Assembly (NCBI GenBank): GCA_964607515.1
Contig: CAZSKU010000003.1
Location: forward strand, 7,154 to 71,153
From: an uncultured bacterium
GTDB lineage: Bacteria; Fermentibacterota; Fermentibacteria; Fermentibacterales; JCC-6
DNA length: 64,000 nt
Direction: 5' to 3'
Of this stretch, positions 4 to 62,272 are shown one piece after another (positions within the stretch are counted from its first letter, which is position 1; each line of letters starts with the position of its first letter). Position numbers and translations under genes: made by a program. The notes below the pieces were generated by a model. The model made no database searches. It had not been told where the DNA came from and was given only the letters and a program-made list of their open reading frames with translations.

Positions 4-1014
4 GTGGAGGCCTTGCGCCGGGAACTACAGGGAAAGCACAGCATCGGTGGCATGGACAGCAGAAGCCCTTTGATGCAGCGGATTTTCGAAGTGCTGCCCG
101 CGGTGGCCGCCAGCCCCAGCACGGTGCTCATTCTTGGAGAGACAGGGACAGGGAAGGAGGTTCTGGCCAGAACCATCCACTCCCTGGGCCCCAGGAACGG
201 AGGCCCCTTCGTGGCGGTAAACTGCGGCGCGCTTCCGGACACGCTTCTGGAATCGGAGCTGTTCGGATACAAGGCCGGCGCCTTTACCGGGGCGGTGAGG
301 GACAAGCCCGGGCGTTTCGCCGCAGCCCGGAAGGGCACCCTGTTCCTGGACGAAATCGGAGAGGTCAGCCCGGCCCTTCAGGTCCGGCTTCTCAGGGTTC
401 TTCAGGAAAAGACCTTCGAGCCCCTGGGATCGGTGGCCCCGGAGACCTCCGACGCCAGAATCATGGCCGCCACCAACTGCGATCTTCGCGAGAAGATGAT
501 CCTGGGGGCTTTCCGGGAGGACCTGTACTACAGGATCAACGTGGTCAGGCTGGAACTTCCCCCCCTCCGGAACCGGAGGGAGGACATTCCTCTGCTGGTG
601 TCCAGGTTCGTGGAGAAGTTCAATCTTCTCCAGGACAGGCATGTCTCGGGGATATCCCCGGAGACCCTGTCCCTTTTCATGGCCCATGACTGGCCCGGGA
701 ACATCCGGGAGCTGGAGAACGTCGTCGAGAGGGCCTTCATCCTGTGCGGCGACGGCCCCATAGGAATCGAACACCTCCCCGGGGAGATGAGGGAGCAGCT
801 TTCCCTCCCTTCCCCTTCTCCCGGAAGCGTCAGGGCGCACCAGATCCTGGACGCATCCCTGATAAGAGCCGCCCTGGACAGGAACCGGCAGAACCGGGAC
901 GCCGCCGCCAGGGAACTGGGAATCCACAGGAGCACCCTGTTCCGGCGGATGAAAAAGCTGGGACTCCTTTCGGAACCGGAAGAGCCGAGGAATAATCCCA
1001 ACGGTAATACGTAG
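4..1014 (+). CDS. Sigma-54-dependent transcriptional activator (NtrC/Fis family); 5' end truncated by the window, so the receiver/sensor domain is missing
   Basis: AAA+ Walker A 'LILGETGTGKEVLARTIH', sigma-54 contact motif 'GAFTGA', Walker B 'LFLDEIGEV', C-terminal Fis-type HTH 'AARELGIHRSTLFRRMKKLGL'. The ORF runs to the window edge. Confidence 0.9.
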   Translation: MEALRRELQGKHSIGGMDSRSPLMQRIFEVLPAVAASPSTVLILGETGTGKEVLARTIHSLGPRNGGPFVAVNCGALPDTLLESELFGYKAGAFTGAVRDKPGRFAAARKGTLFLDEIGEVSPALQVRLLRVLQEKTFEPLGSVAPETSDARIMAATNCDLREKMILGAFREDLYYRINVVRLELPPLRNRREDIPLLVSRFVEKFNLLQDRHVSGISPETLSLFMAHDWPGNIRELENVVERAFILCGDGPIGIEHLPGEMREQLSLPSPSPGSVRAHQILDASLIRAALDRNRQNRDAAARELGIHRSTLFRRMKKLGLLSEPEEPRNNPNGNT

Positions 1015-1041
1015 CATATTCACAACACGTATCGGAGGCAC

Positions 1042-1059
1042 TGTTGCATATGTGCAACA
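1042..1059. promoter_or_regulatory. Inverted repeat TGTTGCA-N4-TGCAACA, a candidate upstream activator sequence for the adjacent sigma-54 activator
   Basis: Perfect 7-bp arms read directly in the sequence. It lies about 90 bp upstream of the putative -24/-12 promoter, with an AT-rich tract between them that could be an IHF bend. Confidence 0.4.
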
Positions 1060-1133
1060 TTACCGATTACCTGCTGCCTGACTAACATCATATTTACCAT
1101 GTTTTTGCGAGGTTTTCTGCTTTCGTCTCATAC

Positions 1134-1149
1134 TGGCAATCTTCGTGCT
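1134..1149 (+). promoter_or_regulatory. Putative sigma-54 (-24/-12) promoter TGGCAatcttcgTGCt
   Basis: GG and GC dinucleotides sit at the canonical spacing (TGGCA-N8-GC) about 25 bp upstream of the ATG at 1175. It follows a sigma-54 activator gene. Confidence 0.45.
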
Positions 1150-1174
1150 ATCTCAATTGCGGGAGGACAGGGTT

Positions 1175-1732
1175 ATGAAAGCGGCCTTCGCCGTCTGGGA
1201 AAACAGGATCGCACCGGTCTTCGACGTGGCCCGGAGGGCATGCATCGTGGAATCCGGAGTTGACAGGGCTCCCGGAAGGGAAACCGTCGAACTTCCCGAG
1301 GGACATCCCTCCGGGAAGGCCGACTTCCTGGCGGACCGCCGGGTTGAGACCCTGGTGTGCGGCGCCGTGACCAGGCCCGCCCTCTGGTTCCTGGCCTCCC
1401 GCGGCATCCAGGTGATCGCCTTCGTGGCGGGCGACCTGGAGAAGGTCATAGGGGCATGGCTGGAGGGAAAGTTATCCCTGGACGAGGCCTTCCTGATGCC
1501 CGGTTGCTGCGGTAACCGACGAAGGGGAAAAACGGAAGGGCTCCCCGGCGCCTGCCGCGGCGGCATGGGCGCAAGAAGAATCGGAGGGCCGGGGGCCGGA
1601 AGGCGTTCCGGCGGATGCGTCTGCCCGGTCTGCGGGCACCGTGAGTTTCTGATGCCCGGCGTGCCCTGCGGATCGAGGGAGTGTCCGGTATGCGGCGCTC
1701 CCATGACGAAAAACATGGAAGGGAGGCATTGA
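1175..1732 (+). CDS. NifX/NifB-C-terminal-like dinitrogenase FeMo-cofactor-binding-domain protein (COG1433-type) with a C-terminal Cys-rich CxxC tail
   Basis: ATG preceded by GGGAGGA at 7 nt. N-terminal ~110 aa resemble the NifX/NafY/NifB-C-term fold ('AFAVWENRIAPVFDVAR', 'LVCGAV', 'IQVI'). C-terminal 'CVCPVCGH...CGSRECPVCGAP' looks like a zinc ribbon. Confidence 0.75.
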   Translation: MKAAFAVWENRIAPVFDVARRACIVESGVDRAPGRETVELPEGHPSGKADFLADRRVETLVCGAVTRPALWFLASRGIQVIAFVAGDLEKVIGAWLEGKLSLDEAFLMPGCCGNRRRGKTEGLPGACRGGMGARRIGGPGAGRRSGGCVCPVCGHREFLMPGVPCGSRECPVCGAPMTKNMEGRH

Positions 1733-1733
1733 T

Positions 1734-2021
1734 ATGCCCAGAGGAGACGGAACGGGACCCAACGGAATGGGTGCCATGACAGGACGCAGGATGGGATTCT
1801 GCGCCGGTTTCTCCCTCCCCGGGTTCTCAAATCGGGGCGGATTCGGAGGAATGGGTGCGGGAAGGGGACGGGGCTGGTTACAGGCCTGGCCTGCGCAGCA
1901 GGCGGTCCCGACCCCCGAGGCCGAGAGAAACTACCTCAACAGCCGCGCCGACTCGCTGCAGGCGGAACTCGACTCGATCAGGAAACGCCTCTCCGCGATC
2001 GAGAAAGGGGAAACCTCCTAG
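1734..2021 (+). CDS. DUF5320-like small protein (Gly/Arg-rich N-terminus, C-terminal coiled coil)
   Basis: 'GRRMGFCAGFSLPGFSNRGGFGGMGAGRGRG' followed by 'LQAELDSIRKRLSAIEK'. Start follows the upstream stop by 1 nt with GGGAGG before the ATG. DUF5320 is commonly found next to NifX-like and MinD-ferredoxin ATPase genes. Confidence 0.7.
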   Translation: MPRGDGTGPNGMGAMTGRRMGFCAGFSLPGFSNRGGFGGMGAGRGRGWLQAWPAQQAVPTPEAERNYLNSRADSLQAELDSIRKRLSAIEKGETS

Positions 2022-2076
2022 GACGCGGCCCGAACCGCCCCGGGCGACCGGGGCGGTTCCACATGAAAGGACTACT

Positions 2077-2439
2077 TTGAAAATCGCCTTCACAACCTCC
2101 GGCAGAACCCTCGACTCGCTTCTGGACCCCCGGTTCGGAAGGGCTCCCGGGTTTCTCATCTATGACACCGACGGTGGCTCGGTGGAGTACATCTCCAACA
2201 TTCAGAACTTCAATGCGGTCCAGGGCGCCGGCACCCAGTCGGCCCAGAACCTGGGCAGCGCCGGGGTTTCCGCGGTGGTTACCGGGCACTGCGGCCCCAA
2301 GGCCTTCAGCGTTCTTGCCCGGGCGGGGATCAAGGTCTACAACACGGGCCTCGCCACCGTGGCCGAGGCTCTGGAAGCCCTTCAGTCGGGCGGGTTGTCT
2401 CCCGCTGGGGGGCCTGACAGGGAGAGCCACTGGCAATGA
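2077..2439 (+). CDS. NifX/NifB-C-terminal-like FeMo-cofactor-binding-domain protein (TTG start inferred)
   Basis: 'KIAFTTSG...LDPRFGRAPGFLIYDTDGG...VVTGHCGPKAFSVLARAGIKVY' is the typical COG1433 fold. AAAGGA lies 5 nt before the TTG at 2077. The only in-frame ATG is far upstream, inside the preceding gene. Confidence 0.7.
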   Translation: MKIAFTTSGRTLDSLLDPRFGRAPGFLIYDTDGGSVEYISNIQNFNAVQGAGTQSAQNLGSAGVSAVVTGHCGPKAFSVLARAGIKVYNTGLATVAEALEALQSGGLSPAGGPDRESHWQ

Positions 2440-2729
2440 ACCGATGGACCGCGCGGCACCGGGAGTACCTGGCCCTCCTCGAAGAGCTCCGTCGGATAGC
2501 CGCCGGGGAGGGGCTGGTGCTGAACCCGGACAGCGAGAGGCTTGAAAAGGTTGTGGGTCTCATGACCGAGAACCTTGCCCTGACCGGTGGCAGGTTCTGC
2601 CCGTGCAAGCAGTCGCATCCCCTGAACACCGATACCGACACCACCTGCCCATGCCCGGAATGGAAGGAAGAGATCGGCTCCCTGGGACACTGCTTGTGCC
2701 GGCTCTTCTACCGGAGGCAGTCCGTATGA
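2436..2729 (+). CDS. Ferredoxin-thioredoxin reductase catalytic-subunit-like protein (FtrB-like)
   Basis: CPC...CPC...C-x-C cysteine arrangement ('CPCKQSHPLNTDTDTTCPCPEWKEEIGSLGHCLC') typical of the FTR catalytic chain. ATGA overlap with the upstream stop. Confidence 0.65.
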   Translation: MNRWTARHREYLALLEELRRIAAGEGLVLNPDSERLEKVVGLMTENLALTGGRFCPCKQSHPLNTDTDTTCPCPEWKEEIGSLGHCLCRLFYRRQSV

Positions 2730-3556
2730 AGCTGGCGGTGGCTTCAGGCAAGGGCGGCACAGGCAAAACAACGGTGGCGGTGAACCTTGCCCGGTGCTGG
2801 AACGGCCCTATCCAGCTGCTTGACTGCGATGTAGAGGCGCCGAACGCGGGGCTCTTCCTCGAAGGTGACCTGCTGCTGACCGAGACCGCCGGAGTACCGG
2901 TTCCCGTGGTGGACGAATCGCTGTGCACGGGCTGCGGCATCTGCTCCGCCTTCTGCGAGTACAACGCCATCGCCTGCGCCGGAGGCTCAGCCATGGTTTT
3001 TCCGGAGATGTGTCACGGGTGCGGTGGGTGCGCCCTGGTCTGCCCCGAAAGGGCCATCAAGGAAACGGACCACCGGATCGGAGTGGTCGAGACCCTCAGG
3101 TCCGGAAGCATCACCCTGATCCGGGGCAGGCTGGACGTCGGGGCGGCCATGGCCCCGCCCCTCATCCGTAAGGTGAAACTCATGGCCTCCCCGGAACTCC
3201 CCTGCATCATCGACTGTCCTCCGGGAACCTCGTGCCCGGTGATCGCCGCCATGAAGGGATCCGACAGGGTACTGCTGGTCACGGAGCCCACTCCCTTCGG
3301 CCTGAACGACCTGAAACTGGCGGTGGAAACGGTGAAGGAACTGGGCATACCCTTCGGTGTGGTGCTGAACCGGTCAGGCTCCGGAGACGGCAGGGTACAG
3401 GAGTTCTGCTCCTCAAGAAACATACCCCTTCTCGTGGAAATACCCGACGACCGGCGCTACGCCGAGGCCTACTCCCGGGGTGAACTCCTGGTGGACTCCT
3501 TTCCCGGGCTCAGGGACCTGTTCGTCGGGCTTCTGGTGGAACTGGAGAAACCATGA
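2726..3556 (+). CDS. MinD/Mrp-superfamily P-loop ATPase with inserted double 4Fe-4S ferredoxin domain (COG1149-type)
   Basis: Deviant Walker A 'ASGKGGTGKTTVAVNLA', two CxxCxxC...CP ferredoxin motifs ('CTGCGICSAFCEYNAI', 'CHGCGGCALVCPERAI'), ParA-like C-terminal half. ATGA overlap with the upstream gene. Confidence 0.85.
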   Translation: MKLAVASGKGGTGKTTVAVNLARCWNGPIQLLDCDVEAPNAGLFLEGDLLLTETAGVPVPVVDESLCTGCGICSAFCEYNAIACAGGSAMVFPEMCHGCGGCALVCPERAIKETDHRIGVVETLRSGSITLIRGRLDVGAAMAPPLIRKVKLMASPELPCIIDCPPGTSCPVIAAMKGSDRVLLVTEPTPFGLNDLKLAVETVKELGIPFGVVLNRSGSGDGRVQEFCSSRNIPLLVEIPDDRRYAEAYSRGELLVDSFPGLRDLFVGLLVELEKP

Positions 3557-4434
3557 TTCGCGAGCTGGTGGTCATCAGCGGCAAGGGCGGCACGGGAAAA
3601 ACAAGCGTTGCCGCTTCCCTGGCGGTTCTGGCGGAAAGACCCCTGGTGGCCGACTGCGACGTGGACGCCGCGGACCTGCACCTGCTTCTGGCCCCCCGGG
3701 AGAGGGAAGGCCACGCTTTCGAGAGCGGAAGACTGGCGGTAATCCGGGGAGAGGACTGCACCGGGTGCGGCAAGTGCATGGATCTTTGCCGGTACGGGGC
3801 GGTGGGCCGGGTGGTCACCGCCCCGGGAGACACCGTGTACTTCGTGGACTCCCACGGTTGCGAAGGGTGCGGAGTCTGCGTGCGCTTCTGTCCCGCCGAA
3901 GCCATAGATTTCCCTGTGCGTGTCTGCGGCCGGTGGATGATCTCGGACACCCGGGTGGGCCCCATGGTCCACGCCCGTCTGGGAATCGCCGCGGAGAATT
4001 CGGGAAAGCTCGTTTCCCTGGTGAGGAGGGAGGCCATGAGGCTGGCCCGGGAGGAGGACAGGGGGCTGGTGATCGTCGACGGCCCTCCCGGAGTGGGCTG
4101 CCCGGTGATAGCTTCCCTGACCGGCGCCCATCGGGCGCTGCTGGTGACGGAGCCAACCGTTTCCGGCGAACACGACCTGAGAAGAGCCCTGGAACTGACC
4201 TCTCACTTCGGGATCCCCTCCCATGTCGTAGTAAACAAGTGGGACCTGAACCCGGACATGACAAGGCGGATAGAAACGGCGGCCCGGGAAGCCGGAGCCC
4301 TTCCGGCGGGCAGGATAAGGTACGATTCAGGGGTCACCAGGGCTCAGGTGGCGGGATTGACTCCCGTTGAGGCAGAAACACAGTGCGCCGCCGATATAGT
4401 GGATGTATGGAAAACACTGGACCTGGAACCGTAA
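3553..4434 (+). CDS. Second MinD/Mrp-superfamily ATPase with inserted 4Fe-4S ferredoxin domain (paralog of the preceding gene)
   Basis: 'ISGKGGTGKTSVAASLA', 'CTGCGKCMDLCRYGAV', 'CEGCGVCVRFCPAEAI'. ATGA overlap with the upstream gene. Confidence 0.85.
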   Translation: MIRELVVISGKGGTGKTSVAASLAVLAERPLVADCDVDAADLHLLLAPREREGHAFESGRLAVIRGEDCTGCGKCMDLCRYGAVGRVVTAPGDTVYFVDSHGCEGCGVCVRFCPAEAIDFPVRVCGRWMISDTRVGPMVHARLGIAAENSGKLVSLVRREAMRLAREEDRGLVIVDGPPGVGCPVIASLTGAHRALLVTEPTVSGEHDLRRALELTSHFGIPSHVVVNKWDLNPDMTRRIETAAREAGALPAGRIRYDSGVTRAQVAGLTPVEAETQCAADIVDVWKTLDLEP

Positions 4435-4450
4435 CAATGGAGGATTCGCC

Positions 4451-4789
4451 ATGAAGATAGCCGTACCCCTGGCCGAAGGCCGGCTCGCACTGCATTTCGG
4501 ACACTGCGAGGCTTTCGCCCTTCTGGACGCCGACCCGGCCACCGGAACCGTCACCGGCAGGCAGGATCTTCCGGCCCCCCCCCATCAGCCCGGCCTTCTT
4601 CCCCCATGGCTGGCGGAGAGGGGAGCAGAGATGATTATAGCCGGAGGCATGGGTCAGAGGGCACAGGACCTGTTCCTGGCCCACGGCATCAGGGTGCTGG
4701 TGGGAGCCCCCAGGGAGACTCCCGAAGAGCTGGCGGAATCTTATCTTAGGGGAACCCTGAGTCTCGGCGGAAATGCCTGCGACCACTGA
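4451..4789 (+). CDS. NifX/NifB-C-terminal-like FeMo-cofactor-binding-domain protein (third copy)
   Basis: 'MKIAVPLAEGRLALHFGHCEAFALLD...MIIAGGMGQRAQDLFLAHGIRVLVG'. GGAGGA lies 7 nt upstream of the ATG at 4451. Confidence 0.75.
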   Translation: MKIAVPLAEGRLALHFGHCEAFALLDADPATGTVTGRQDLPAPPHQPGLLPPWLAERGAEMIIAGGMGQRAQDLFLAHGIRVLVGAPRETPEELAESYLRGTLSLGGNACDH

Positions 4790-5189
4790 GCCCCTGGCTT
4801 TCCCTGGACACAGCCACTGCCTCTTCTGCGGGGAGTTGAACCCCCATTCCCTGAGGCTTGTTTTCAGAGCCAGCGACGACGGGGCAGTGGAAACGGAGTT
4901 CACGGCCCCGGAGACCCTGCAGGGCTACGACGGCATGGTTCACGGAGGGATCCTGGCCTCCCTGATGGACGCCGCCATGACCCACTGCCTCTTTCATCTG
5001 GGAATACGGGCCTACACAGGGGACCTGCGGGTCAGGTTCCTCCGCCCGGTGCCCTGGGGCAGGCGGCTGGCGATACGTGCCGCCAGGAGAGCCTCCCGCG
5101 GGCCCGTTCACCGGCTTGAATCGGAGATATGGGAGGGCGGCGAAATGATGGCCAGAGCCTCGGCCACCTTCATGGAGAGCATGTCCTAG
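4773..5189 (+). CDS. PaaI/hotdog-fold thioesterase
   Basis: 'MVHGGILASLMDAAM...GDLRVRFLRPV' is the hotdog thioesterase signature. Its start overlaps the upstream gene by 17 nt. Confidence 0.7.
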   Translation: MPATTEPLAFPGHSHCLFCGELNPHSLRLVFRASDDGAVETEFTAPETLQGYDGMVHGGILASLMDAAMTHCLFHLGIRAYTGDLRVRFLRPVPWGRRLAIRAARRASRGPVHRLESEIWEGGEMMARASATFMESMS

Positions 5190-5233: not shown

Positions 5234-5262
5234 TTGACTATCTTTCCATAAAGACATATATT
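5234..5262 (+). promoter_or_regulatory. Sigma-70-type promoter TTGACT-N17-TATATT, overlapping an AT-rich imperfect palindrome that is the likely ArsR operator
   Basis: -35 TTGACT at 5234-5239, 17-nt spacer, -10 TATATT at 5257-5262. 'ATATATTTGTATATATGTATA' runs from 5256 to 5276. This is the only AT-rich island in a GC-rich region and sits ~30 bp upstream of arsR. Confidence 0.55.
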
Positions 5263-5292: not shown

Positions 5293-5646
5293 ATGGAAAG
5301 AGATGCGGGGGTTCTCAAGGCCCTCTCGGAGCCCGTAAGGCTGAAACTGACCGCCCTGCTGGCGGTTGCCGGGGAAACCTGCGTCTGCAGACTCGCAGAG
5401 GCCCTGGACCTCCCCTGCAGCACGATTTCCCGTCATCTGCGGATACTGCGCTCCGAAAACCTTGTGAAGGCACGAAGAGAGGGAACCTGGATGCATTACA
5501 GTCCGGCGGAATCCACGGAAGGCGTATTTCCGCTCCTTCTCTCCTATTTCAGGAACCGGGCGCCGGAAATGCCGGGGATGAAGACCGTGCTCGAAAGGCT
5601 CGAAGGGAATTCCTGCAAGCCACCCCGGACGGCGCAAAATGGCTGA
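5293..5646 (+). CDS. arsR: ArsR/SmtB-family metalloregulatory repressor
   Basis: '[16 protein letters not shown]...[42 protein letters not shown]' is the winged HTH with a Cys pair in the metal site. Directly upstream of acr3. Confidence 0.85.
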
Positions 5647-6802
5647 GAGAAGAATGAGCAACCCCTTCGAAAGGTACCTTACCCTGTGGGTGTCTCTGTG
5701 TATCATCGCCGGTATCATGCTGGGCAAGGCCGCTCCCGGTCTGGCTGCGAGCCTCGATTCCATGGCCCTGACCGTGAACGGCGCCCCGGTGGTCTCTATC
5801 CCCATTGCAGTCTGCCTTTTCCTGATGATGTACCCCATCATGGTTAAAATCGACTTCACCCGAGCGCTCAGAACCGGAGGCAATGCGAAGCCGGTGTTGC
5901 TAACCCTCTTCATCAACTGGTGTGTGAAACCCTTCACCATGTACGGCATAGCGCTTCTTTTCCTTGGATTGCTCTTCAAGCCTCTCATCGGCGTTGAAGC
6001 CACCGACATCGTAAAGCTGCCCTTCGGCCTGGATCTCCCCGCGGGCGCCGTACACGGCGCTGGAACGGTGGTTCTGAGGGAAGGGGTTCCCATGCTGGAA
6101 ATCCCTCTCTGGAGAAGCTATCTGGCGGGGGCGATCCTTCTGGGAATCGCCCCCTGCACCGCCATGGTTCTTGTCTGGAACTACCTCGCGGAAGGCAACG
6201 ACGGTCTGACCCTCATCATGGTGGCTGTGAACTCCCTGACCATGCTCCTCCTCTATGGAGTTCTCGGGGGGTTCCTGCTGGGTGTGGGCCGTCTGCCGGT
6301 TCCCTGGCAAGCTCTTCTGCTGTCCATCGGCGTGTATGTCGCCCTGCCCCTGGCTGCGGGATACCTATCCAGAAAATGGATAATCGCCTCAAAAGGCATG
6401 GCATGGTTCGAAACAAGGTTCCTCAACTTGCTGACTCCGGTCACCGTCGGAGCCCTTCTTCTGACCCTGGTTCTTCTATTCAGCTTCAAGGGAGAGGTCA
6501 TCCTGGACAATCCTCTAACCATCCTGTGGATTGCGGTACCTTTGTTCATCCAGACCGTCATGATTTTCGGTCTGGGCTACTGGCTGGCCAGGCGGCTCCG
6601 ACTGTCCTACGCCGATGCGGCCCCTGCGGCGATGATCGGAGCCTCGAATCACTTCGAAGTGGCAATCGCGACGTCCACCATGCTTTTCGGTCTGTCCTCG
6701 GGAGCAGCTCTCGCAACCGTCGTGGGGGTTCTGATCGAAGTACCCGTTATGCTCCTTCTAGTAAGGTTCTGTCTTCGGACGAGAAACCTGTTCCGCCGAT
6801 GA
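5639..6802 (+). CDS. acr3: ACR3-family arsenite efflux permease
   Basis: About 10 TM segments, '[11 protein letters not shown]' and the conserved ACR3 cysteine in '[13 protein letters not shown]'. Overlaps the arsR stop by 8 nt. Confidence 0.9.
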
Positions 6803-6832: not shown

Positions 6833-7702
6833 TTGCGCCGCCTCGGAGGTTTGAGCATACTCCGGCCGGGGAGGAACCCGGAGGGGCAGAAGGGTTGCTT
6901 TCACTTGCCTGACATCTCCCGCGCCGACCATCTTCTCGTGGTGCTGGAAAACCTGTCGGAACCGGTCATCTCCTACGATGATTCCCTTCACATTAACTGG
7001 ATGAACCCCGCAGCGGAGGTGTTCCTCGGGGTCAGCCTGGAGCGGACCCGGGGGCTCTCCTGCGATCAGGTCTTCCCCAGCGGCGCCCCCTGCCGGGACG
7101 ACTGCCCGGTGGCGGACGCTTTCAGGGAATGGCGCATCTCGTCGCTGGTCACCCGGGGGCTATCCCTGGGAGAGCGGCTCGTCACGGCGGTACCCGTGCT
7201 GCACGGACCCGAGGGCAGGAGCGTGCTGGAGATAATACAGTGGCCCTTCATGGAGTACTCCAGGTCGCCGTTTAGAATCAGGGTTCTGGAGGAACTAAAC
7301 GGCGCCTTCGGTCTGGAGGAGGCTGCCGCGGTCATGGTGGAGGCCATGAGGGAGGTGGCCGGCCCGGTGGCGGCGGGGGTATACAGGGAGAACCGGGAAG
7401 GCTACACCCTGGTGAGTGGAACCGGATTGCCCCCCGCGATGGGCAGGATACCACTGTTGGACGACCCTTCCTCCCCCCCCCTCTACACCTCTGCCTCATC
7501 GATCACCGGATGGCCGCAGGACGACCCCTTTCCCGAGGAAGTCTCGGTGCTGCCCCTCTCCAACGGGGAGAGCCCCGGCGGGTTCATGGTCTGCTGCGCC
7601 ATCCCCGACTCCCACGGAAGGGAGAGGCTGGAGGAGCTGCGGGCCGTTATGAACTCAGCCATGCGGAGGCTCCTTCTGGCCGGGGACTGCCGGAGGGTTT
7701 GA
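6833..7702 (+). CDS. Stand-alone PAS/GAF-like sensor-domain protein with no recognisable output domain
   Basis: N-terminal PAS-like segment ('SYDDSLHINWMNPAAEVFLGVSLERTRGLSCDQVF'), then a GAF-like region. The exact start is uncertain. Confidence 0.45.
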   Translation: MRRLGGLSILRPGRNPEGQKGCFHLPDISRADHLLVVLENLSEPVISYDDSLHINWMNPAAEVFLGVSLERTRGLSCDQVFPSGAPCRDDCPVADAFREWRISSLVTRGLSLGERLVTAVPVLHGPEGRSVLEIIQWPFMEYSRSPFRIRVLEELNGAFGLEEAAAVMVEAMREVAGPVAAGVYRENREGYTLVSGTGLPPAMGRIPLLDDPSSPPLYTSASSITGWPQDDPFPEEVSVLPLSNGESPGGFMVCCAIPDSHGRERLEELRAVMNSAMRRLLLAGDCRRV

Positions 7703-7748
7703 GGCAAAAGGAGATATATTCCTTCCTCGATCATCGAAGGGAGGAACA

Positions 7749-8144
7749 GTGGATCTTTCCCCGGCCCTTAACTCCAAAACGGTGGTCACCAGACTGGTGG
7801 AACCCCTGATGTCCGCAGCCGCGTTGGGCTCCGGAAGCCTGGAGGTTCTCTCCACCCCGTGGATGATCGCGATGATGGAGTCCGCCAGCCGCGCCGCGGT
7901 TCAGAAGCACCTTCCGGAAGGCTATACCACGGTGGGCACCCGGGTGGACGTCCGGCACACGGCCCCAGTTTTCGTAGGTGCCGAGGTCACCGTGGAGAGT
8001 AAAGTTGTCGAAATCATCGGCCGGACCCTGCTGTTCCGGGTCGCCGTCCGCCTCGGCGACTTGGAAGTGGGTTCCGGGATTCATGAAAGAGCGGTGGTGA
8101 ACATGGAGAAATTCATGTCCCTCTCCGGGAAAGGCATGTTATGA
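7749..8144 (+). CDS. Hotdog-fold acyl-CoA thioesterase (fluoroacetyl-CoA thioesterase FlK-like family), GTG start
   Basis: 'SGSLEVLSTPWMIAMMESAS...GTRVDVRHTAPVFVGAEVTVESKVVEIIGRTLLFRV'. GGGAGG lies 4 nt before the GTG at 7749. Confidence 0.7.
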   Translation: MDLSPALNSKTVVTRLVEPLMSAAALGSGSLEVLSTPWMIAMMESASRAAVQKHLPEGYTTVGTRVDVRHTAPVFVGAEVTVESKVVEIIGRTLLFRVAVRLGDLEVGSGIHERAVVNMEKFMSLSGKGML

Positions 8145-9964
8145 CCGATACCGCCCCTCTCAGGAGAAGCGAAGTACCAGGGGAGGACACCTGGGACCTG
8201 ACGCCGATGTACAGCTCGGACCGACACTGGACCGCCGCCCTGGAAAAGGCGTCGCAACTCCCCGTGCAATCCTCCCGGTGGAAAGGCACCCTGGGCTCGT
8301 CTCCCGAGAACCTCGCGGCCGTCCTGGAGCAGGTCCTTCAGGCTAACAGAACGGTTGAAAAGCTCTACGTCTACGCCCACCTCAGACAGGACCAGGACCT
8401 TTCCGACTCCGGGGCGGTGGAGATGTTCGAGAAGGCGGCCGCCCTGAACGCCAGACTGATGGCCGAAACCAGCTACCTGGCCCCGGAGATTCTGGCCGTC
8501 CCCCCGGAGACCATGGAACGGTGGCTGCAACTGGACCTGCTGGCCCCCTACAGGACGTGGCTTGACGAGATTCTCAGGGCAAGACCCCACACCCTGGACG
8601 CCCCCCGGGAGGAGCTTCTGGCCAGGGCCTTCGAGGTTTCCCGCTGTTTCAGCGCAGCCTCGGGCAAGCTCACCAACGTGGAGATGCCCGCCAGGCTTCC
8701 GGCAGTCGCCGATGACTACGGCTCCAGGGTGAAACTCACCAACAGCAATTTCATCAGGCTTCTCACGGAAGGCTCCCGGGAGGTGCGCAGGAACGCTTAC
8801 CAGGGATTCTACAGGGAGCTCGCCGGAAACACCGCCACCCTGGCGGCCCTGCTGGAGGGCCAGGTGAAAGCCCACGTGTTCAACGCCCGGGCCAGGAACT
8901 TCCCTTCGGCCCTGGAGGCATCCCTGTTCAATGACCGTGTGGGCGGCGGGGTGTACCGGGAGCTGATCTGTTCGGTCCACAGGAACCTTCCCGCTCTCCA
9001 TCGTTACTACCGGCTGAAGAAGCGGATCCTCGGGCTCGACCGACTGGCCATGTACGACCTGTACGCCCCCATCGCCGGTGAAAGCCCCAGGCGCTACACC
9101 TTCCCGGAAGCGGCGGACCTGACTCTGGAAGCTGTGAAACCTTTGGGCGGCGTCTATGAGAAAACCCTGGCTCAGGGCATAGAGAACCGGTGGATCGACC
9201 GGTACGAAAACGTAGGAAAACGCTCCGGAGCATATTCAAGCGGATGCTACGACAGCGCCCCGTACATTCTTATGAACTTCACCGGCACCCTGGACTCGGT
9301 GTTCACCCTGGCCCACGAGGCCGGACACTCCATGCACAGCAATTTCTCCCGGAAGAACCGTTCCTACCAGGAATCGGACTATCCCATCCTTCTGGCGGAG
9401 GTGGCCAGCATTACCAACGAGGTGCTGCTCTTCGAGCACCTGGTCAGGCAGGCGTCCGGACCCGAGGAGCTGGTGCCGGTTCTGGACCACCTTGTGAACG
9501 CCTTCCGGTCCACCCTGTTCCGGCAGGCCATGTTCGCCGAGTTCGAACTGCTGATCCACGAGCACGTAGAGGCGGACGGCGTTCTCACACCGGACTTCCT
9601 CAGGGAGAGCTACTACTCCCTGGTGAAGGCATACCACGGGGACGCCTTCGCCTGGGACGACACCGACGCAATGATCGGGACCGAGTGGGCCCGGGTCCCC
9701 CATTTCTATTACAATTTCTATGTTTACAAGTACGCCACCGGCATGGCCTCCGCGGTGGCCGCGGGCGAGGCCGTCCTCCGGGGGGCCGACGGGTACGTGG
9801 ACAGATACATGGATTTCCTGGGGGGAGGCCGGAGCAGACCCCCGCTGGACCAGCTCAAGGGGATCGGAATCAACCTGGAGTCCCCGGAACCGGTGGACAC
9901 CGCGGTTGCCCGGTTCGCCCGGACCGTGGCGATGCTGGAGGAAACGCTTGGGCAAAAAGGATAG
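8141..9964 (+). CDS. pepF: Oligoendopeptidase F (M3B family)
   Basis: ~600 aa with the HExxH zinc motif 'FTLAHEAGHSMHS'. Overall PepF architecture. ATGA overlap with the upstream thioesterase. Confidence 0.9.
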   Translation: MTDTAPLRRSEVPGEDTWDLTPMYSSDRHWTAALEKASQLPVQSSRWKGTLGSSPENLAAVLEQVLQANRTVEKLYVYAHLRQDQDLSDSGAVEMFEKAAALNARLMAETSYLAPEILAVPPETMERWLQLDLLAPYRTWLDEILRARPHTLDAPREELLARAFEVSRCFSAASGKLTNVEMPARLPAVADDYGSRVKLTNSNFIRLLTEGSREVRRNAYQGFYRELAGNTATLAALLEGQVKAHVFNARARNFPSALEASLFNDRVGGGVYRELICSVHRNLPALHRYYRLKKRILGLDRLAMYDLYAPIAGESPRRYTFPEAADLTLEAVKPLGGVYEKTLAQGIENRWIDRYENVGKRSGAYSSGCYDSAPYILMNFTGTLDSVFTLAHEAGHSMHSNFSRKNRSYQESDYPILLAEVASITNEVLLFEHLVRQASGPEELVPVLDHLVNAFRSTLFRQAMFAEFELLIHEHVEADGVLTPDFLRESYYSLVKAYHGDAFAWDDTDAMIGTEWARVPHFYYNFYVYKYATGMASAVAAGEAVLRGADGYVDRYMDFLGGGRSRPPLDQLKGIGINLESPEPVDTAVARFARTVAMLEETLGQKG

Positions 9965-11699
9965 TCCCGACCATCTCCTGAACCTGCTTCTCGGCAGCGG
10001 CCAGGACCTGATCACCGTGAAGGACTGCGCCCTCCGCTGCACCACCGTGAGTTCATCCCTGGCGGAGTTCTTCGGCTTCGACGACACCTTCGCCTTCCGG
10101 GGGAAAACCCTGGGCGAGGTTCTCGGGGAGGACACGGCCAGGGAGGAGGAGATCGCGGACCGGCAGGTTCTGGACAGCATGGAGACCAGGACGGTTCTGT
10201 TGAACTACCGGTCTTCCGACGGAAGCGTGCACGATTTCCAGTGCCTCAAGAGCCCCCTGTTCCAGACCGACGGAAGCCTGTGGGGAATTCTCAGCGTCAG
10301 TCGCGACACAACCGAGAGGGAGTCCCGCCTTAAGAAACTTCAGGCAGACGCCGCGGTAAACGAGGCGGTTATCATGAACGCCCCCCTGGGAGTCTCCGTG
10401 AGGGATTCCGCAGGCAATCTCGTGATGGTGAACGACGCCTGGAAGAAGATCTGGGCCCTGCAGGACCAGGAGGTCAGACAGGACATGGACAAACGCCGCC
10501 CCGGCGTCCAGTTCGATGAAACCGACAGCTACCTGGGCGGTTACACCCAGGAGGTCAGCAAGATATACAACGAGGGTGGTCAGCTCTACATTCCCCAGCT
10601 CCGGGTGAAGGAACCCAGGCCAGGAGGTGCATCCTGGGTCAGCCACCACTACTACGCCCTGCACGACGGACAGGGCGATGTGGACAAGGTGGTGGTTCTT
10701 ACGGAAGACCTGACCGAGCAGGTCAGGAGCAGAAGGGCCCTGGAGCAGAGCCAGATCAACTACAGAAACCTTTCGGAAAACGTTCCCGCGGGAATCTTCT
10801 CGGCGGAACTCAGGGTCGGGGGCCCCATCCTCTTCTGCAACCCCGCCTTCAAGCGAATGTTCGGTTTCCAGGAACACGAGACTCCCGTAGGGATGCCCCT
10901 GGAAGCCTTCGTAAGCGACCCGGACTTCTCCGCAGAGGCCATCCCGGGGCTTCTGGACACCGGCAGGGCCGACGACGTGGAACTTCTGATGCACCGGGCT
11001 GACGGCGGCGACTTCTGGGGTTCCATGACCATAAGGCTCCACAGCACCGACGACACCCTGATAATGCAGGGCGTCATAACCGACATCAGCCACCGGCGGG
11101 AGTCCCTGGAGAAGCTTCACAAGACGGTTATGGGAACGGTCTCCGCCATGGGCCGGCTGGTGGACATGAAAGACCCCTACACCGCCGGTCATCAGGAGCG
11201 GGTTGCCCATCTTGCAACGGCGATAGCCACCGAGGCCGGACTGAGCCCCGAAAGGATCGAAGGGGTTAACATCGCGGGAAAACTCCATGACATAGGCAAG
11301 ATGTGCGTTCCCGCGGAAATCCTCACCAAACCCGGAGCCGTCTCGTCGGAGGAGATGCGCCTTCTGAAAACCCACCCGGCAAGCGGCTACAATATCCTGC
11401 GGAACATCGAGTTTCCGTGGCCGGTTGCGGACTACGTGCTCCAGCACCATGAGAGGCTGGACGGGAGCGGATACCCCTCGGGGCTCACGGACAGGGACAT
11501 CTGCATCGAGGCCAAGATTCTGGCTGTGGCCGACGTGGTCGAGGCCATGGCCACCCGAAGGCCGTACCGGGCCGGCAAGGGCATCCACGAGGCGTTGCAG
11601 ACGGTGACCATGGGGTCCGGAATCCTCTATGACAGGAAGATGACCGAGATCTGCGTGCACCTGTTCATGCAGAGGGGCTACGCCCTCCCACCCTACTGA
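9948..11699 (+). CDS. PAS-PAS-HD-GYP c-di-GMP phosphodiesterase (TTG start inferred)
   Basis: Two PAS-like blocks, then an HD-GYP domain: 'HQERVAHLATAIA', 'KLHDIGKMCVP', 'HHERLDGSGYPSGL'. GGAGGA lies 7 nt before the TTG at 9948, overlapping the pepF stop. The only in-frame ATG is inside pepF. Confidence 0.8.
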   Translation: MGKKDSPDHLLNLLLGSGQDLITVKDCALRCTTVSSSLAEFFGFDDTFAFRGKTLGEVLGEDTAREEEIADRQVLDSMETRTVLLNYRSSDGSVHDFQCLKSPLFQTDGSLWGILSVSRDTTERESRLKKLQADAAVNEAVIMNAPLGVSVRDSAGNLVMVNDAWKKIWALQDQEVRQDMDKRRPGVQFDETDSYLGGYTQEVSKIYNEGGQLYIPQLRVKEPRPGGASWVSHHYYALHDGQGDVDKVVVLTEDLTEQVRSRRALEQSQINYRNLSENVPAGIFSAELRVGGPILFCNPAFKRMFGFQEHETPVGMPLEAFVSDPDFSAEAIPGLLDTGRADDVELLMHRADGGDFWGSMTIRLHSTDDTLIMQGVITDISHRRESLEKLHKTVMGTVSAMGRLVDMKDPYTAGHQERVAHLATAIATEAGLSPERIEGVNIAGKLHDIGKMCVPAEILTKPGAVSSEEMRLLKTHPASGYNILRNIEFPWPVADYVLQHHERLDGSGYPSGLTDRDICIEAKILAVADVVEAMATRRPYRAGKGIHEALQTVTMGSGILYDRKMTEICVHLFMQRGYALPPY

Positions 11700-45551: not shown

Positions 45552-46475
45552 ATGAAAACCATGGAAAGCGGCCTGTACCTCATCCTTCTCCTGGCGGCGC
45601 CACCCCCCACCGGAGGCAGGCACCCGGCTCTCGACAGCCTGGCGGCCTCCATACTGGCCATGGACAGCATCCCCACGGGAACGGACCTTCTCAGAATGGC
45701 CGCCCTGAAAGGATGGGTCTGGCCTCTCGGGGAGGTGTCCCTGCTGCGGGAACCGCAGGAACCGGAGCCAGACTCCCCCTTCTGGGGCAGCGGCGAGTCC
45801 GCGGACGGCTTCTGCCTGGTCACGGCTCCGGCGCCGTCCTTCCGCCTGGACCCCCTGCCCCCGGCATCGGTGGATCCCGGAGAATTCGTGGAGCTTTCCC
45901 CCAGGGGTCAGCCCCGGGACATGAGGGGGGCGGTGCTCTCCCCCTGTCTGGATGTGATCCCATTGAAGGAACCGGGGTTCCGGGCTTTCCGGGAGGGGAC
46001 CTGGTGGGTGGAGTTCATGGCCGATACCCCCTACGGTCCGCAGGTGCTCATGCTCACCCCGGTCACCGCCGGCGAACCCGGCGGATGGCCGGGCAACGGC
46101 TGGGGTCGTGACAGGATCATCGAGGGAATCAACGGGCTTCGCAGGAAGCTCGGAATCGGGGAACTTCGGGAAAACCCGGTGCTCAACGTACTATGCGGCA
46201 TCAGGGCAAGGCAGGCCGGCAGTTGGGGAGGGGCCTTTCACTCCTTTCCAGGAAGCCCCGGGACGGGGGCCATGATGCCGCCCGCTTTCGGCGCCTGGGC
46301 CGAGAACATCGCCACCGGTTCCACCGTGGAAGAGGCCCTGGAGATGATCCTGGTCAGCCCCTTCCACCTGGCCTCATGCCTTCAGGAAAGGTATCGCTTC
46401 ATGGGGACCGGAACTGTCTCCGGCGGCCGGGGAGCGACCCTTGTTATCATCCTGTCGGAGGCTGCCGATGAGTGA
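45552..46475 (+). CDS. Hypothetical secreted protein
   Basis: Signal-like 'MKTMESGLYLILLLAAP'. No recognisable domain. Start uncertain (45552 or 45561). Confidence 0.4.
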   Translation: MKTMESGLYLILLLAAPPPTGGRHPALDSLAASILAMDSIPTGTDLLRMAALKGWVWPLGEVSLLREPQEPEPDSPFWGSGESADGFCLVTAPAPSFRLDPLPPASVDPGEFVELSPRGQPRDMRGAVLSPCLDVIPLKEPGFRAFREGTWWVEFMADTPYGPQVLMLTPVTAGEPGGWPGNGWGRDRIIEGINGLRRKLGIGELRENPVLNVLCGIRARQAGSWGGAFHSFPGSPGTGAMMPPAFGAWAENIATGSTVEEALEMILVSPFHLASCLQERYRFMGTGTVSGGRGATLVIILSEAADE

Positions 46476-48024
46476 CCCTCTGCTCCGCCGGACTCCCTTG
46501 ATCCCCTTCGCCGCCGGCTTCCTGGGCGTCCTTTCCGCCGCCGGAGCGGCGGCTCTGTCGCCCGACCCGGGAATCACCCTCATGCTCGCCCTCACCGCCA
46601 TGGTCTGCGCCGCCCTGAGGATATCCGTGGACGGCCGGGAGTACGAGACGGTCCACACCATGCTCCTTTTCCTCTGCTTCTGGTACGGCGGCGTCGGCGC
46701 CGGTCTTCTTGCGGTGCCGGTACTGGCCTCGGGGTCTGTTCTGGACCCACGGGATTCCCTCCGTACGGGCGCCTTCCACGTGGGCACCGTGATTCAGGGG
46801 CTGCTGATCCTCCCCATGGCGCTCCTCTTCCCCGGTGGTTCCGGAGGATACCCGCCGCCGGTCTACCTCATGCTGGTGCCCCTGCTCTTCCTCGCCAGAA
46901 GGCTGGCCGCACCCGTCCCGCACCGGAGGCCCAGGAGGAGTCTGGCCTTTCTGGGTTTCCTGGCCAACGTGCCAGCCGTGCTGCTGGCGATCCACGTAAC
47001 TGAGGCATTCGGAAGGGCGGCAACCCTGGTGCTGTGCGGACTCTGCATCTTCTACCTGATCCTGGTCCGACGGGAAACGCTGGCCATCGAGAAAAGGGCC
47101 GTCACGCTCCGCCGCATCACCCGGCACAACAGCGTTTCCAGGGCTCTGCTCTCGTCGGCTTCCCTGCCTGAGTTCATTTCAATCCTGGAGGCCGGAACAG
47201 GACCCGGTTTCACTTTCTACGAGAAGGGATCCGAGGGGTGGACCCGGTGGACCTCCTCCGGGTCCGGGAATGTTTCCGCCCTCCCGAAACCCCTTCCCGG
47301 AGGTCTCAGCTACTCGAGCCCCGCTGTACCCGGGCTTCTGATCACCGCCGAAGGGCCCGCGGCCGAGGCCGTCTCGGGTCACGTCAGGAGCGAAGCCCGG
47401 GACTTCAGTGAGCAGATCGCAAGAACCTGGCAGGTGGCCTCCGCCAGAATCCACCAGGAGGAGGCTCTTTTCAGCGTCGCCCTGCTGCTGGCAAGGATAG
47501 CGGACCTGAAGGACAGGTACACGAAGATGCACTCCCTCAGGGTCGCCGCCCTTTCCTCGGCCCTCGGATCGGAACTGGGGCTTTCGGAACCGGAACTGGC
47601 GATGCTCCGGACCGGCGCTTTGCTGCACGACATCGGCAAGGTAAGCCTGCCGTCGGAAATCCTGGGCAAGAAGGGCATCCTTACTTCCCGGGAAAGGGCA
47701 GTAATCAGGGACCATCCTGGTGAGGGCGCGGCCCTGGTATCGGGCCTCAGCAGGTTCCGGAAGGCTGCTGAAACGGTTCTGCACCACCACGAAAGGATGG
47801 ACGGCAGCGGCTACCCTTCCGGGCTTCGGGGCTCCGGTATTCCCCTGCACAGCAGGATAGTGGCGGTGGCTGACACCTTCGACGCCATCACCGCCGACAG
47901 ACCCTACCACCCGGAGGTTCAGAGCGGCAGCGCCCTCAGGGAGATCCAGGCGGGCAGGGGAACCCTGTACGACGCCCGGGTGGTGGATGCCCTGGCCAGA
48001 CTGGTGGAGGCCGGAAAATGGTGA
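46468..48024 (+). CDS. Membrane-anchored HD-GYP domain phosphodiesterase
   Basis: ~8 N-terminal TM helices, then 'HSLRVAALSSALG', 'LHDIGKVSLP', 'HHERMDGSGYPSGL'. GGAGG lies 6 nt before the ATG at 46468. Confidence 0.8.
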   Translation: MSDPLLRRTPLIPFAAGFLGVLSAAGAAALSPDPGITLMLALTAMVCAALRISVDGREYETVHTMLLFLCFWYGGVGAGLLAVPVLASGSVLDPRDSLRTGAFHVGTVIQGLLILPMALLFPGGSGGYPPPVYLMLVPLLFLARRLAAPVPHRRPRRSLAFLGFLANVPAVLLAIHVTEAFGRAATLVLCGLCIFYLILVRRETLAIEKRAVTLRRITRHNSVSRALLSSASLPEFISILEAGTGPGFTFYEKGSEGWTRWTSSGSGNVSALPKPLPGGLSYSSPAVPGLLITAEGPAAEAVSGHVRSEARDFSEQIARTWQVASARIHQEEALFSVALLLARIADLKDRYTKMHSLRVAALSSALGSELGLSEPELAMLRTGALLHDIGKVSLPSEILGKKGILTSRERAVIRDHPGEGAALVSGLSRFRKAAETVLHHHERMDGSGYPSGLRGSGIPLHSRIVAVADTFDAITADRPYHPEVQSGSALREIQAGRGTLYDARVVDALARLVEAGKW

Positions 48025-52077: not shown

Positions 52078-52103
52078 GGAAACCGCAGCCGGCAGCCTTC
52101 GGA

Positions 52104-61889: not shown

Positions 61890-61903
61890 CGTCTTCACCC
61901 CCC

Positions 61904-62272
61904 TTAGAACAGGATGCTGAGGCTGGTGGAATCGGCCCCTTCGGGGCCGTTCCAGGTGACCCGGCATCTGACGAGTTTCGCCGCCGGGTACTCCGAATAG
62001 GGTGTGGAGATGACCACGACCCTCTCGAAACCCTCCGGAAGCACCTCCAGCGGGCCGGCGCCGTCGGGCATGGAAGCCACGTCCAGGGTGCGCATCTCCT
62101 CGAGCTTCTCCCGGCAGTACTGAAGCCCCTTGGTCATGAGATCCATCTCGTTCGAGCTTCTGACGATGTGGAAGAAGAACACCGCGATTCCCGCCACGAT
62201 GATGGCCAGCAGAATGGACGCGATGACCACTTCCATAAGGGTGAAACCGCCGCTGCCGCGGATTCTGTTCAT
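61904..62272 (-). CDS. PilV/GspI-like minor (pseudo)pilin
   Basis: 'GSGGFTLMEVVIASILLAIIVAGI' prepilin motif, ~120 aa. Confidence 0.7.
   Translation of the reverse strand: MNRIRGSGGFTLMEVVIASILLAIIVAGIAVFFFHIVRSSNEMDLMTKGLQYCREKLEEMRTLDVASMPDGAGPLEVLPEGFERVVVISTPYSEYPAAKLVRCRVTWNGPEGADSTSLSILF

Follow-up and report, generated by a model that had tools for sequence, protein, structure and literature searches.

A probable orp (orange protein complex) operon with an OrpR-type activator and an added disulfide reductase-like gene in an uncultured Fermentibacterota bacterium

A 64-kb stretch of DNA from an uncultured bacterium of the Fermentibacterota (contig CAZSKU010000003.1, positions 7,154 to 71,153; hereafter the window) carries at positions 4–5189 the 3′ part of a sigma-54 activator gene and eight genes, g1 to g8, which with a probability of about 0.9 represent an orp (ORange Protein complex) operon under the control of an OrpR-type activator and sigma-54. 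This identification rests on one-to-one BLASTP homology together with independent structure and profile matches, the activator, g1, g2, g3, g5, g6, and g7 corresponding, respectively, to OrpR, Orp7, Orp5, Orp8, Orp4, Orp3, and the C-terminal domain of Orp9. An earlier note made from the sequence alone had taken the genes for an uncharacterised module, a description that has to be given up, since the sigma-54/integration host factor (IHF)/OrpR regulation and several components of the orp system have been studied experimentally (PMC3897727, PMC8359166, PMC6345978). In that form, as a previously uncharacterised Fe-S or cofactor assembly module without a studied relative, the proposal could draw on the listing of DUF5320, the family of g2, as unknown in Pfam and on literature searches for DUF5320, COG1149, and COG1433 that yielded nothing relevant, but it is refuted by the gene-for-gene homology and the shared regulation with orp and OrpR (PMC3897727, PMC8359166, PMC6345978), and we consider it very improbable. 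One supposed unknown system is removed, and the Pfam orphan DUF5320 and its COG1149/COG1433 neighbourhood are now tied to the experimentally studied orp and OrpR.

Nine orp clusters were compared: that of the window; those of two reference loci, Oleidesulfovibrio alaskensis G20 (CP000112; L130) and a Nitratidesulfovibrio locus of the divergent type found in Desulfovibrio vulgaris Hildenborough (DvH) (L131; the same type is seen in L059, a true orp locus that ends at a contig edge); and those of L127, L128, L132, L133, L135, and L136, among which L128, L132, and L133 bear the names of Syntrophales, Fermentibacteria, and Calditrichaeota metagenome-assembled genomes (MAGs). Gene correspondence to the reference loci was assigned by BLASTP, domains by Pfam, and family cut-offs by NCBIfam. 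Locus tags of G20 (3197, the 142-aa protein; 3198, the orange protein [ORP]; 3199, the 89-aa protein; 3202, MrpORP) were assigned by combining PMC10533852 and PMC6345978 with the order of genes in L130. The order activator, long NifX-like gene, DUF5320 gene, ORP gene, MinD-ferredoxin pair, and Di-Nase gene is kept in L127, L135, L136, L128, and L132, and the joint occurrence of NifX-like, DUF5320, and MinD-ferredoxin genes in related loci bears out their grouping by the earlier note. The tight coupling that it had claimed for the eight genes is likewise evident from their coordinates, all on the forward strand: g1 and g2 are separated by 1 nt and g6 and g7 by 16 nt, 4-nt ATGA overlaps join g3 to g4, g4 to g5, and g5 to g6, g7 and g8 overlap by 17 nt, and the spacer between g2 and g3 measures 55 nt. 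Pfam also confirmed each of the domains that had been named. As a module, however, the set of eight stands only in its NifX-like, DUF5320, and MinD-ferredoxin core, while the ferredoxin-thioredoxin reductase (FTR)-like gene (5/9 clusters) and the thioesterase gene (2/9) are accessory.

The orp genes of DvH (DVU2103–DVU2109) and G20 (Dde_3196–Dde_3202) share with the window Orp7, Orp5/DUF5320, the orange protein, the Orp4/Orp3 MinD-ferredoxin pair, and an Orp9-type Di-Nase domain, as well as the adjoining OrpR-type activator and the sigma-54 promoter. In G20 they follow the activator gene as one operon read in a single direction, which is the layout of the window, whereas in DvH they are divided between two divergent operons; the order in G20 is 142-aa protein, ORP, 89-aa protein, against g1, DUF5320, ORP in the window. 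The host is not a Desulfovibrio, and its proteins are 26–57% identical to the orp proteins of that group, from which the window also differs by a zinc-ribbon tail on the Orp7 counterpart, a gene similar to ferredoxin-dependent disulfide reductases (FDRs) and FTR inserted before Orp4, a terminal hotdog thioesterase gene, and another activator site.

The orange protein homologue is g3 (2077–2439; TTG start, ribosome binding site AAAGGA), which scores 81 bits against Nitro_FeMo-Co, has its best solved-structure match over the full length in PDB entry 2WFB, ‘ORP’ (E 1.4e-20), and is 50–52% identical to G20 Dde_3198 and to the Nitratidesulfovibrio ORP. The orange protein of Desulfovibrio gigas (2WFB) consists of the same single Nitro_FeMo-Co domain of ~120 aa and is about 45–50% identical to g3, although Desulfovibrio ORP has Val where g3 has Cys in the GHCGPKAF segment. 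The first gene, g1 (1175–1732; ATG start, ribosome binding site GGGAGGA at 1161–1167), encodes an Orp7/Dde_3197-like protein of the NifX fold (Nitro_FeMo-Co, 30 bits), the N-terminal domain of which is 26–28% identical to the G20 142-aa protein and the Nitratidesulfovibrio Orp7 (143 aa), with E values of 5e-7 and 7e-6, VCG and MPGC being invariant between g1 and Orp7. This domain is followed by a linker rich in Gly and Arg and, at the C-terminus, by a four-Cys zinc-ribbon-like tail, CxCPxCG...PCxxRxCPxCG, that L127, L128, and L132 keep and Desulfovibrio lacks. The Orp5 counterpart, g2 (1734–2021), is a DUF5320 protein (PF17253, 89.7 bits) that combines an N-terminal MPRGDGTGP..G.C motif with a Gly/Arg linker and, at the C-terminus, an amphipathic helix; the Nitratidesulfovibrio gene in the Orp5 position likewise encodes a DUF5320 protein (28.4 bits).

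The Nitro_FeMo-Co domain (PF02579) of g1, g3, and g7 is shared with NifX, NafY, the C-terminal domain of NifB, and IssA, and binds complex metal-sulfide clusters non-covalently. Its presence on three proteins, beside MinD-type ATPases that are distantly related to NifH, might be taken to mark an accessory set for maturation of the nitrogenase cofactor (FeMo-co) of the NifX/NafY type. We find this scarcely credible. NifX and NafY are distinguished by a nif context and an equivalog match, neither of which was seen for g1, g3, and g7; NCBIfam returned no NifX or NafY match, the three proteins matching MrpORP alone there; neither the window nor any of the nine related loci was found to contain nifHDK, nifEN, or nifB; and the closest match by structure, the orange protein, binds a Mo-Cu-S cluster and not FeMo-co. 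A Pfam scan of ~30 larger open reading frames (ORFs) of the window returned no nitrogenase, hydrogenase, carbon monoxide dehydrogenase, or Mrp gene, the first three of which the earlier note had proposed looking for.

The spacer between g2 and g3 contains a G+C-rich stem-loop on the forward strand (2032–2059; 12 bp, GCGA loop, dG −28.2 kcal/mol, z −3.35) that recurs in L127 and L135 and, in a different sequence with 4 compensatory pair changes, in L136; it is not present in L128 or L132. Since the stem is not followed by a U-tract, it is read as an element of mRNA processing or stability, and its role is probably one of stability, processing, or attenuation of the transcript.

The paralogues g5 (2726–3556) and g6 (3553–4434) both encode MinD-type P-loop ATPases with an inserted 2×[4Fe-4S] ferredoxin domain (Pfam CbiA/ParA and two Fer4 matches, the inserts lying at about residues 58–120), g5 being Orp4-like and g6 Orp3-like. 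The best matches of g5 are a G20 316-aa protein (47%) and a Syntrophales 282-aa protein (64%), with identities to the Orp4 type of 38–47%, and g6 is 47–48% identical to the G20 308-aa protein and the Nitratidesulfovibrio Orp3 and 68% identical to a Syntrophales 289-aa protein. The matches are reciprocal with respect to the Orp4 and Orp3 types, and cross-matches are lower. Neither protein qualified as a bona fide MinD, the scores of g5 and g6 being 57.1 and 45.9 bits against minD_arch (cut-off 201.75) and 26.7 and 38.7 bits against minD_bact (cut-off 212.9).

These ATPases are also the point of departure for the hypothesis of the original orp papers, that the cluster is a system for cell division or cell-pole positioning in which the MinD-like ATPases act like MinD or ParA and the remaining proteins are accessory. 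Inactivation of OrpR in DvH leads to morphological defects, and the phrase ‘putatively involved in cell division’ has been used of the Orp proteins (PMC8359166, PMC3897727); MrpORP has a polar location, and a MinD-like amphipathic helix is said to form the end of both Orp3 and Orp4 (PMC6345978); and by Pfam the P-loop domain of g5 and g6 is MinD/ParA-like. Yet the two proteins fall far under the MinD family cut-offs (57 vs 201.75 for minD_arch, 39 vs 212.9 for minD_bact), their partners are all metal-cluster proteins, the cluster contains neither minC or minE nor partition genes, and the orp authors themselves term the role ‘still unclear’. As an account of the window’s operon we regard cell division as quite unlikely, although it and a role in metal-cluster handling may not be mutually exclusive.

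The stand-alone protein g7 (4451–4789; Nitro_FeMo-Co, 66 bits) is homologous to the C-terminal Di-Nase domain of Orp9/MrpORP. It scores 121 bits against NCBIfam MrpORP NF041136 (cut-off 450), covering only profile positions 265–365 of 365, and is 48–54% identical to the last 112 residues of the G20 and Nitratidesulfovibrio MrpORP. The motifs HFGHCE, PPHxPGxLP, and terminal CDH (motifs from PMC6345978) are kept, with Ala in place of the first Cys of CXHFGHCE. Ala is found in the stand-alone Di-Nase proteins (window, L127, L135, L136, and L133), whereas the first Cys is kept in those fused to Mrp (L128, L130, and L131), from which the ligand set of the Di-Nase domain appears to change together with the loss of Mrp. 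MrpORP (Orp9) possesses an Mrp/NBP35 P-loop domain with CXXC that acts as an Fe-S carrier and that g7 does not have, and no Mrp gene was found in the operon or among the ~30 larger window ORFs scanned with Pfam.

Only the 3′ part of the activator gene (4–1014, with the stop codon at 1012–1014) falls within the window, where it encodes an AAA+ domain with GAFTGA, a lid, and a Fis-type helix-turn-helix (HTH) (Pfam Sigma54_activat, 217 bits; AAA_lid_14; HTH_8); the part coding for the PAS domain lies upstream. A contig identical to the window’s, obtained from another sample and reaching further upstream, supplies the full protein (L004:4431–5888), which consists of 485 aa with PAS, AAA+, and HTH domains and without a receiver domain. 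The activator had been described as a truncated one of the NtrC type, but it is cut only by the window edge, and the domain composition of the full-length protein shows it to be PAS-type. An NtrC-type assignment was rejected on the PAS N-terminus, the missing receiver domain, and scores under all NCBIfam equivalog cut-offs. The PAS domain contains CSEVFRCSMCESDC, that is, C-x-E-x6-C-x3-C, with the spacing of OrpR C52/E54/C61/C65, and the protein is 57% identical to the OrpR proteins of G20 and Nitratidesulfovibrio, in both of which the motif begins at residue 52, over 370 aa that include the PAS domain. The motif occurs in all 120 of the best homologues listed and in 9/9 activators read from loci (the window, seven adjoining orp clusters, and L037). 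With OrpR (DVU2106) the activator thus has in common the PAS-AAA+-HTH architecture, the C-x-[DE]-x6-C-x3-C motif in the PAS domain, and a gene adjoining orp; it differs in having GAFTGA where OrpR of Desulfovibrio has GAFTDA, and in the HTH recognition helix.

Both orp operons of DvH rely on sigma-54 RNA polymerase for their transcription and need OrpR and IHF as well (PMC3897727). They are switched off when the redox potential rises, through the [4Fe-4S] cluster of the PAS domain; residues C52, E54, C61, and C65 of OrpR are required for this redox-sensitive cluster, which gates sigma-54 activation, and the OrpR regulon as determined by chromatin immunoprecipitation sequencing (ChIP-seq) is orp only (PMC8359166). 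The earlier note’s expectation of signal-dependent expression can accordingly be made specific, the signal in DvH being redox potential, and from the conserved motif and the DvH experiments it is likely that expression of the window’s operon follows low redox potential via a PAS Fe-S cluster. The occurrence of OrpR-type Fe-S/PAS activators beside orp clusters in Syntrophales and Fermentibacteria MAGs also carries this type of regulator beyond the Desulfovibrio-like deltaproteobacteria, in contrast to the suggestion of the 2021 paper.

Several further relatives of the activator were noted. GAFTDA, the Desulfovibrio OrpR form, occurs in 8 of the 120 homologues listed, and relatives of ~800 aa (P0005–P0009, P0018, and P0028) carry extra N-terminal PAS domains together with the same Cys motif. 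Desulfovibrio sp. W18 encodes an OrpR-like protein (L037 3405–4880) with the Cys motif at residue 52, GAFTDA, and, upstream of its gene, the palindrome published for OrpR; the 8-kb locus contains no orp genes, and the divergent neighbour is a PAS histidine kinase gene.

Between the activator stop codon and g1 extends a spacer of 160 nt with a G+C content of 44%. At 1134–1149 of the forward strand it contains the predicted sigma-54 promoter TGGCAA-TCTTC-GTGCT (TGGCAATCTTCGTGCT), with the −24 GG at 1135–1136 and the −12 GC at 1147–1148; the portion at 1134–1148, TGGCAATCTTCGTGC, has the canonical GG-N10-GC spacing and is the single TGGCA-N7-TGC match in the window. By chance, 1.6 such matches are expected per 64 kb on both strands and ~0.002 in the 160-nt spacer on one strand; the match count alone is not significant, and the significance of the element therefore rests on its position and conservation. 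Nine promoter regions were compared, those of the window, L127, L135, L136, L128, L132, and G20 and two from Nitratidesulfovibrio, and a GG-N10-GC element was present at the equivalent position in 9/9: TGGCACCCTTCGTGCT in L127, TGGCAACCTTCGTGCT in L135, TGGCACCTCCCTTGCT in L136, TGGCATGCTGTATGCT in L132, TGGCAGCGCTTTTGCA in L128, CGGCATCATTCCTGCC in G20, and TGGAACGGTTCGTGCT and TGGCATCATGCATGCT in Nitratidesulfovibrio. The −24/−12-like promoter of the earlier note is thus canonical, and its proposal of sigma-54 control is upheld by this spacing, by the same placement in each related locus, and by the adjoining activator and nearby palindrome. Both conditions that the earlier note had named as refuting it, wrong promoter spacing and missing co-conservation, were checked, and each result favours the note.

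That palindrome, TGTTGCA-TATG-TGCAACA (1042–1059), is, as had been pointed out, perfect, and it is the single perfect copy in the 64 kb. Its centre lies ~110 bp upstream of the predicted transcription start, and it is probably the binding site of the activator, that is, a candidate upstream activating sequence. In L135 both arms are identical to those of the window around a 4-nt spacer of CTAT instead of TATG, and in L127 the core GTTGC-N6-GCAAC is kept (5/7 bases per arm); the activators of the window, L127, and L135 have the HTH helix AAARELGIHRSTLFRRMKKLGLL in common. L128 has another HTH helix and another perfect palindrome, TGCAGTAGC-N6-GCTACTGCA, and the Desulfovibrio activators a third helix type, with GGGCG...CGCCC as their published site. 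As would be expected where a protein binds, the arms of the palindrome are conserved where the helix is identical and different where the helix differs. The activators of L127 and L135 are 88% identical to that of the window, that of L136 76%, and that of L128 74%. A four-way alignment of the spacer left the stop codon, the palindrome core, the −24/−12 element, and the ribosome binding site as invariant blocks. These comparisons point to co-evolution of the activator site and the HTH helix alongside an unchanged sigma-54 promoter. The tract between palindrome and promoter (1060–1133), noted before as AT-rich, has a G+C content of 40.5% against 63.8% for the window; it is a T-tract spacer and may be a bend or IHF region, IHF involvement being possible by analogy with DvH (PMC3897727).

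Several observations weigh against the assignment to orp and OrpR. The likeness of g1 to Orp7 is weak (26–28%), and the Mrp/NBP35 P-loop domain of Orp9, which is the Fe-S transfer part in vitro, is missing here. The window’s palindrome is wholly unlike the DvH OrpR site GGGCGYRTTTTGCGCCC (PMC8359166), which does not occur between the activator gene and g1 and among orp loci is seen only in L130, L131, and L059; scanned across the genome contigs, the DvH site gave mostly chance matches in unrelated genomes, L059 and L037 being informative. OrpR of DvH also has two sites, whereas the window shows one clear palindrome. The best match to the IHF consensus WATCARNNNNTTR is poor (1095–1107, 2 mismatches), and no rpoN or ihf gene was found in the 64-kb window (RpoN box motif, six-frame translation); the RpoN gene considered by the earlier note is therefore not at hand, and sigma-54 itself is assumed. 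Finally, the cellular role of ORP is ‘still unclear’, with cell division suggested (PMC8359166).

On the assignment to orp, the activator would hold a redox-sensitive [4Fe-4S] cluster on three PAS cysteines, by homology with DvH OrpR, and would sit on TGTTGCA-N4-TGCAACA, ~110 bp upstream of the start site, the spacer between this site and the promoter being IHF-assisted in DvH; upon a rise in redox potential, the PAS domain would block activation and the operon would fall silent. When expressed, the transcript would encode the Orp7-like and Orp5-like proteins, the orange protein, the FDR/FTR-like protein, the Orp4/Orp3 pair, the Di-Nase protein, and the hotdog thioesterase, and the products might assemble into an Fe-S-rich, ATP-driven complex. 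Such a complex could bind and hand on a non-covalently held metal-sulfide cluster, as on the orange protein and its NifX/NafY/IssA relatives, with the ferredoxin domains as electron source and, in the window’s lineage, with the FDR-like subunit reducing a disulfide or persulfide of a partner. In DvH, Orp3, Orp4, and Orp8 co-purify, MrpORP can pass Fe-S clusters to them, MrpORP's Di-Nase domain holds a [3Fe-4S] cluster, and ORP binds [S2MoS2CuS2MoS2] non-covalently (PMC6345978). The metal-cluster step is drawn from the domain families and the DvH in-vitro data, and we put forward the complex, together with the reduction of a partner by the FDR-like protein, tentatively, at somewhat short of even odds. 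The metal-cluster theme of the earlier note is supported in this way, and its verdict that the biochemical function is unsolved stands.

The most interesting of the window’s variant features is g4 (2436–2729), which encodes a single-domain protein of 97 aa resembling a stand-alone FDR or FTR catalytic subunit (FeThRed_B, 41.8 bits; CPC...CPC...CLC). Its six cysteines (C55/C57, C71/C73, and C86/C88) do not vary among 30 homologues and align with those of 7PWE and 4TPU. The AlphaFold2 (AF2) model of g4 (pLDDT 94.3) matched 7PWE with a TM score of 0.74 and 4TPU with 0.70 in Foldseek, against 0.64–0.67 for classical FTR (1DJ7, 0.65). The fold and the six cysteines are common to g4, the FTR catalytic subunit, and the FDRs, namely the Methanosarcina acetivorans FDR (4TPU) and the Desulfotalea glutaredoxin-FDR fusion (7PWE). 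The middle residue of the last CxC motif is Tyr in the 7PWE and 4TPU chains but Leu or Phe in the g4 clade; classical FTR has His at this position. FDR types are fused to rubredoxin or glutaredoxin, whereas g4 is stand-alone and embedded in an orp operon, where neither an FTR variable subunit nor a fused rubredoxin or glutaredoxin is available to it as a partner.

A g4-like gene lies inside the orp clusters of the window, L127, L136, L132, and L133 and is missing from the orp loci of L135, L128, G20, and Nitratidesulfovibrio. The clade is small, amounting at 90% identity to 58 clusters, with 26 representatives scoring E < 1e-10, and the most distant homologue of g4 sits in an unrelated gene context. 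A literature search for FTR together with the orange protein yielded nothing relevant. It seems to us rather unlikely that the g4-like protein is a true subunit, overlooked until now, of a widespread form of ORP distinct from that of Desulfovibrio; if it were, g4, the stand-alone Di-Nase, and the zinc-ribbon Orp7 would jointly reveal missing chemistry of the ORP complexes, in which the ferredoxin inserts of the ATPases would supply electrons for the reduction of a disulfide or persulfide, and this reduction would drive loading or release of the metal-sulfide cluster. The recurrent FDR-like gene offers a testable clue to the role of the ORP complex, a question that dates from the description of the Mo-Cu cluster.

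The last gene of the operon, g8 (4773–5189), encodes a hotdog-fold thioesterase. The PaaI thioesterase of the earlier note holds as far as the PaaI-like hotdog fold is concerned (4HBT, 40.4 bits vs a cut-off of 20.6) and fails as a family assignment; a PaaI phenylacetyl-CoA thioesterase was rejected at 21.7 bits against the PaaI/PaaD equivalog (cut-off 118.9). PDB matches are weak (E 1e-5). An orthologue, 63% identical, occupies the same overlapping position in L136, and no counterpart was found in the 7 other sampled orp loci, a distribution that suggests g8 to be a lineage-specific last gene of the operon.

Downstream of g8 follow arsR (5293–5646) and an ACR3 arsenite efflux gene (5639–6802; 370 bits), and outside the window, divergently upstream of the activator gene, a set of feoB, feoA, and a DtxR-like gene (Fe_dep_repress and FeoA domains) is found at 1166–4346 in L004, 4665–7839 in L127, and 2656–5832 in L136. 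Such neighbours invite a further reading, in which the operon serves in the handling and detoxification of thiometallates or metalloids (Mo, W, or Cu sulfides, possibly thioarsenic) and ORP sequesters the thiomolybdate-copper clusters of sulfidic cells. The non-covalent binding of [S2MoS2CuS2MoS2] by ORP (PMC6345978) would fit it, as would the presence of arsR-acr3 directly downstream of orp in the window and L135 and of arsR downstream in L136, and of feoAB and the DtxR-like repressor gene upstream of the activator. In transcriptomes of G20, Dde_3197–3199 are among the most strongly regulated genes under copper exposure, and feoA and Dde_3197–3199 are regulated together (PMC10533852). The ars genes, however, have a sigma-70-like promoter of their own, TTGACT-17-TATATT at 5234–5262, none lies beside the orp clusters of L127, L128, L130, L131, and L132, and three related genomes may have this neighbourhood only by common descent; the regulon of DvH, moreover, responds to redox potential and not to metals (PMC8359166). 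We hold a dedicated detoxification role to be improbable. In L127, 129 bp replace the window’s 1.8 kb comprising g8, arsR, and most of acr3, with ~175 bp of homology to the 3′ end of acr3 kept.

An Rfam scan of the window gave zero matches, with no rRNA gene among its contents, and a terminator scan gave 8 matches against 5.3 expected, none of them positioned after g8. The rest of the window holds housekeeping and other genes, including those for FtsEX, SurA-like isomerases, Mfd, TyrRS, DapA, BamD, FtsK, radical-SAM enzymes, HD-GYP proteins, and pilin-like giants, and the BamD and SurA-like proteins indicate that the host is a diderm bacterium.

Other orp clusters showed variations of their own. 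A radical-SAM gene stands between the two MinD-ferredoxin genes in L128 (11883–13138), where a Zn_ribbon_8 protein is encoded beside it, and in L133 (2868–3812). The L128 cluster ends in a 555-aa NifU_N-Mrp-Di-Nase triple fusion, and the L133 cluster also holds an ARMT1-like gene and a CGGC-domain gene. In the window, the ars genes are followed by a gene at 6833–7702 for a protein of 254–289 aa with no Pfam match and by a second hotdog thioesterase gene (FlK/4HBT) at 7749–8144, so placed that two hotdog thioesterase genes flank the ars genes; the gene pair at 6833–8144 is conserved in L127. HD-GYP (HD_5) proteins are encoded at 9720–11699, with PAS domains, and at 46441–48024. On the minus strand, giant ORFs of 939, 966, and 1340 aa at 49531–55004 and 57945–61967 look like pilin-like or surface proteins; a prepilin methylation motif is present at the N-terminus of one, Kre9/KNH Ig-like repeats in another, and an InhA-like MAM domain in the third.

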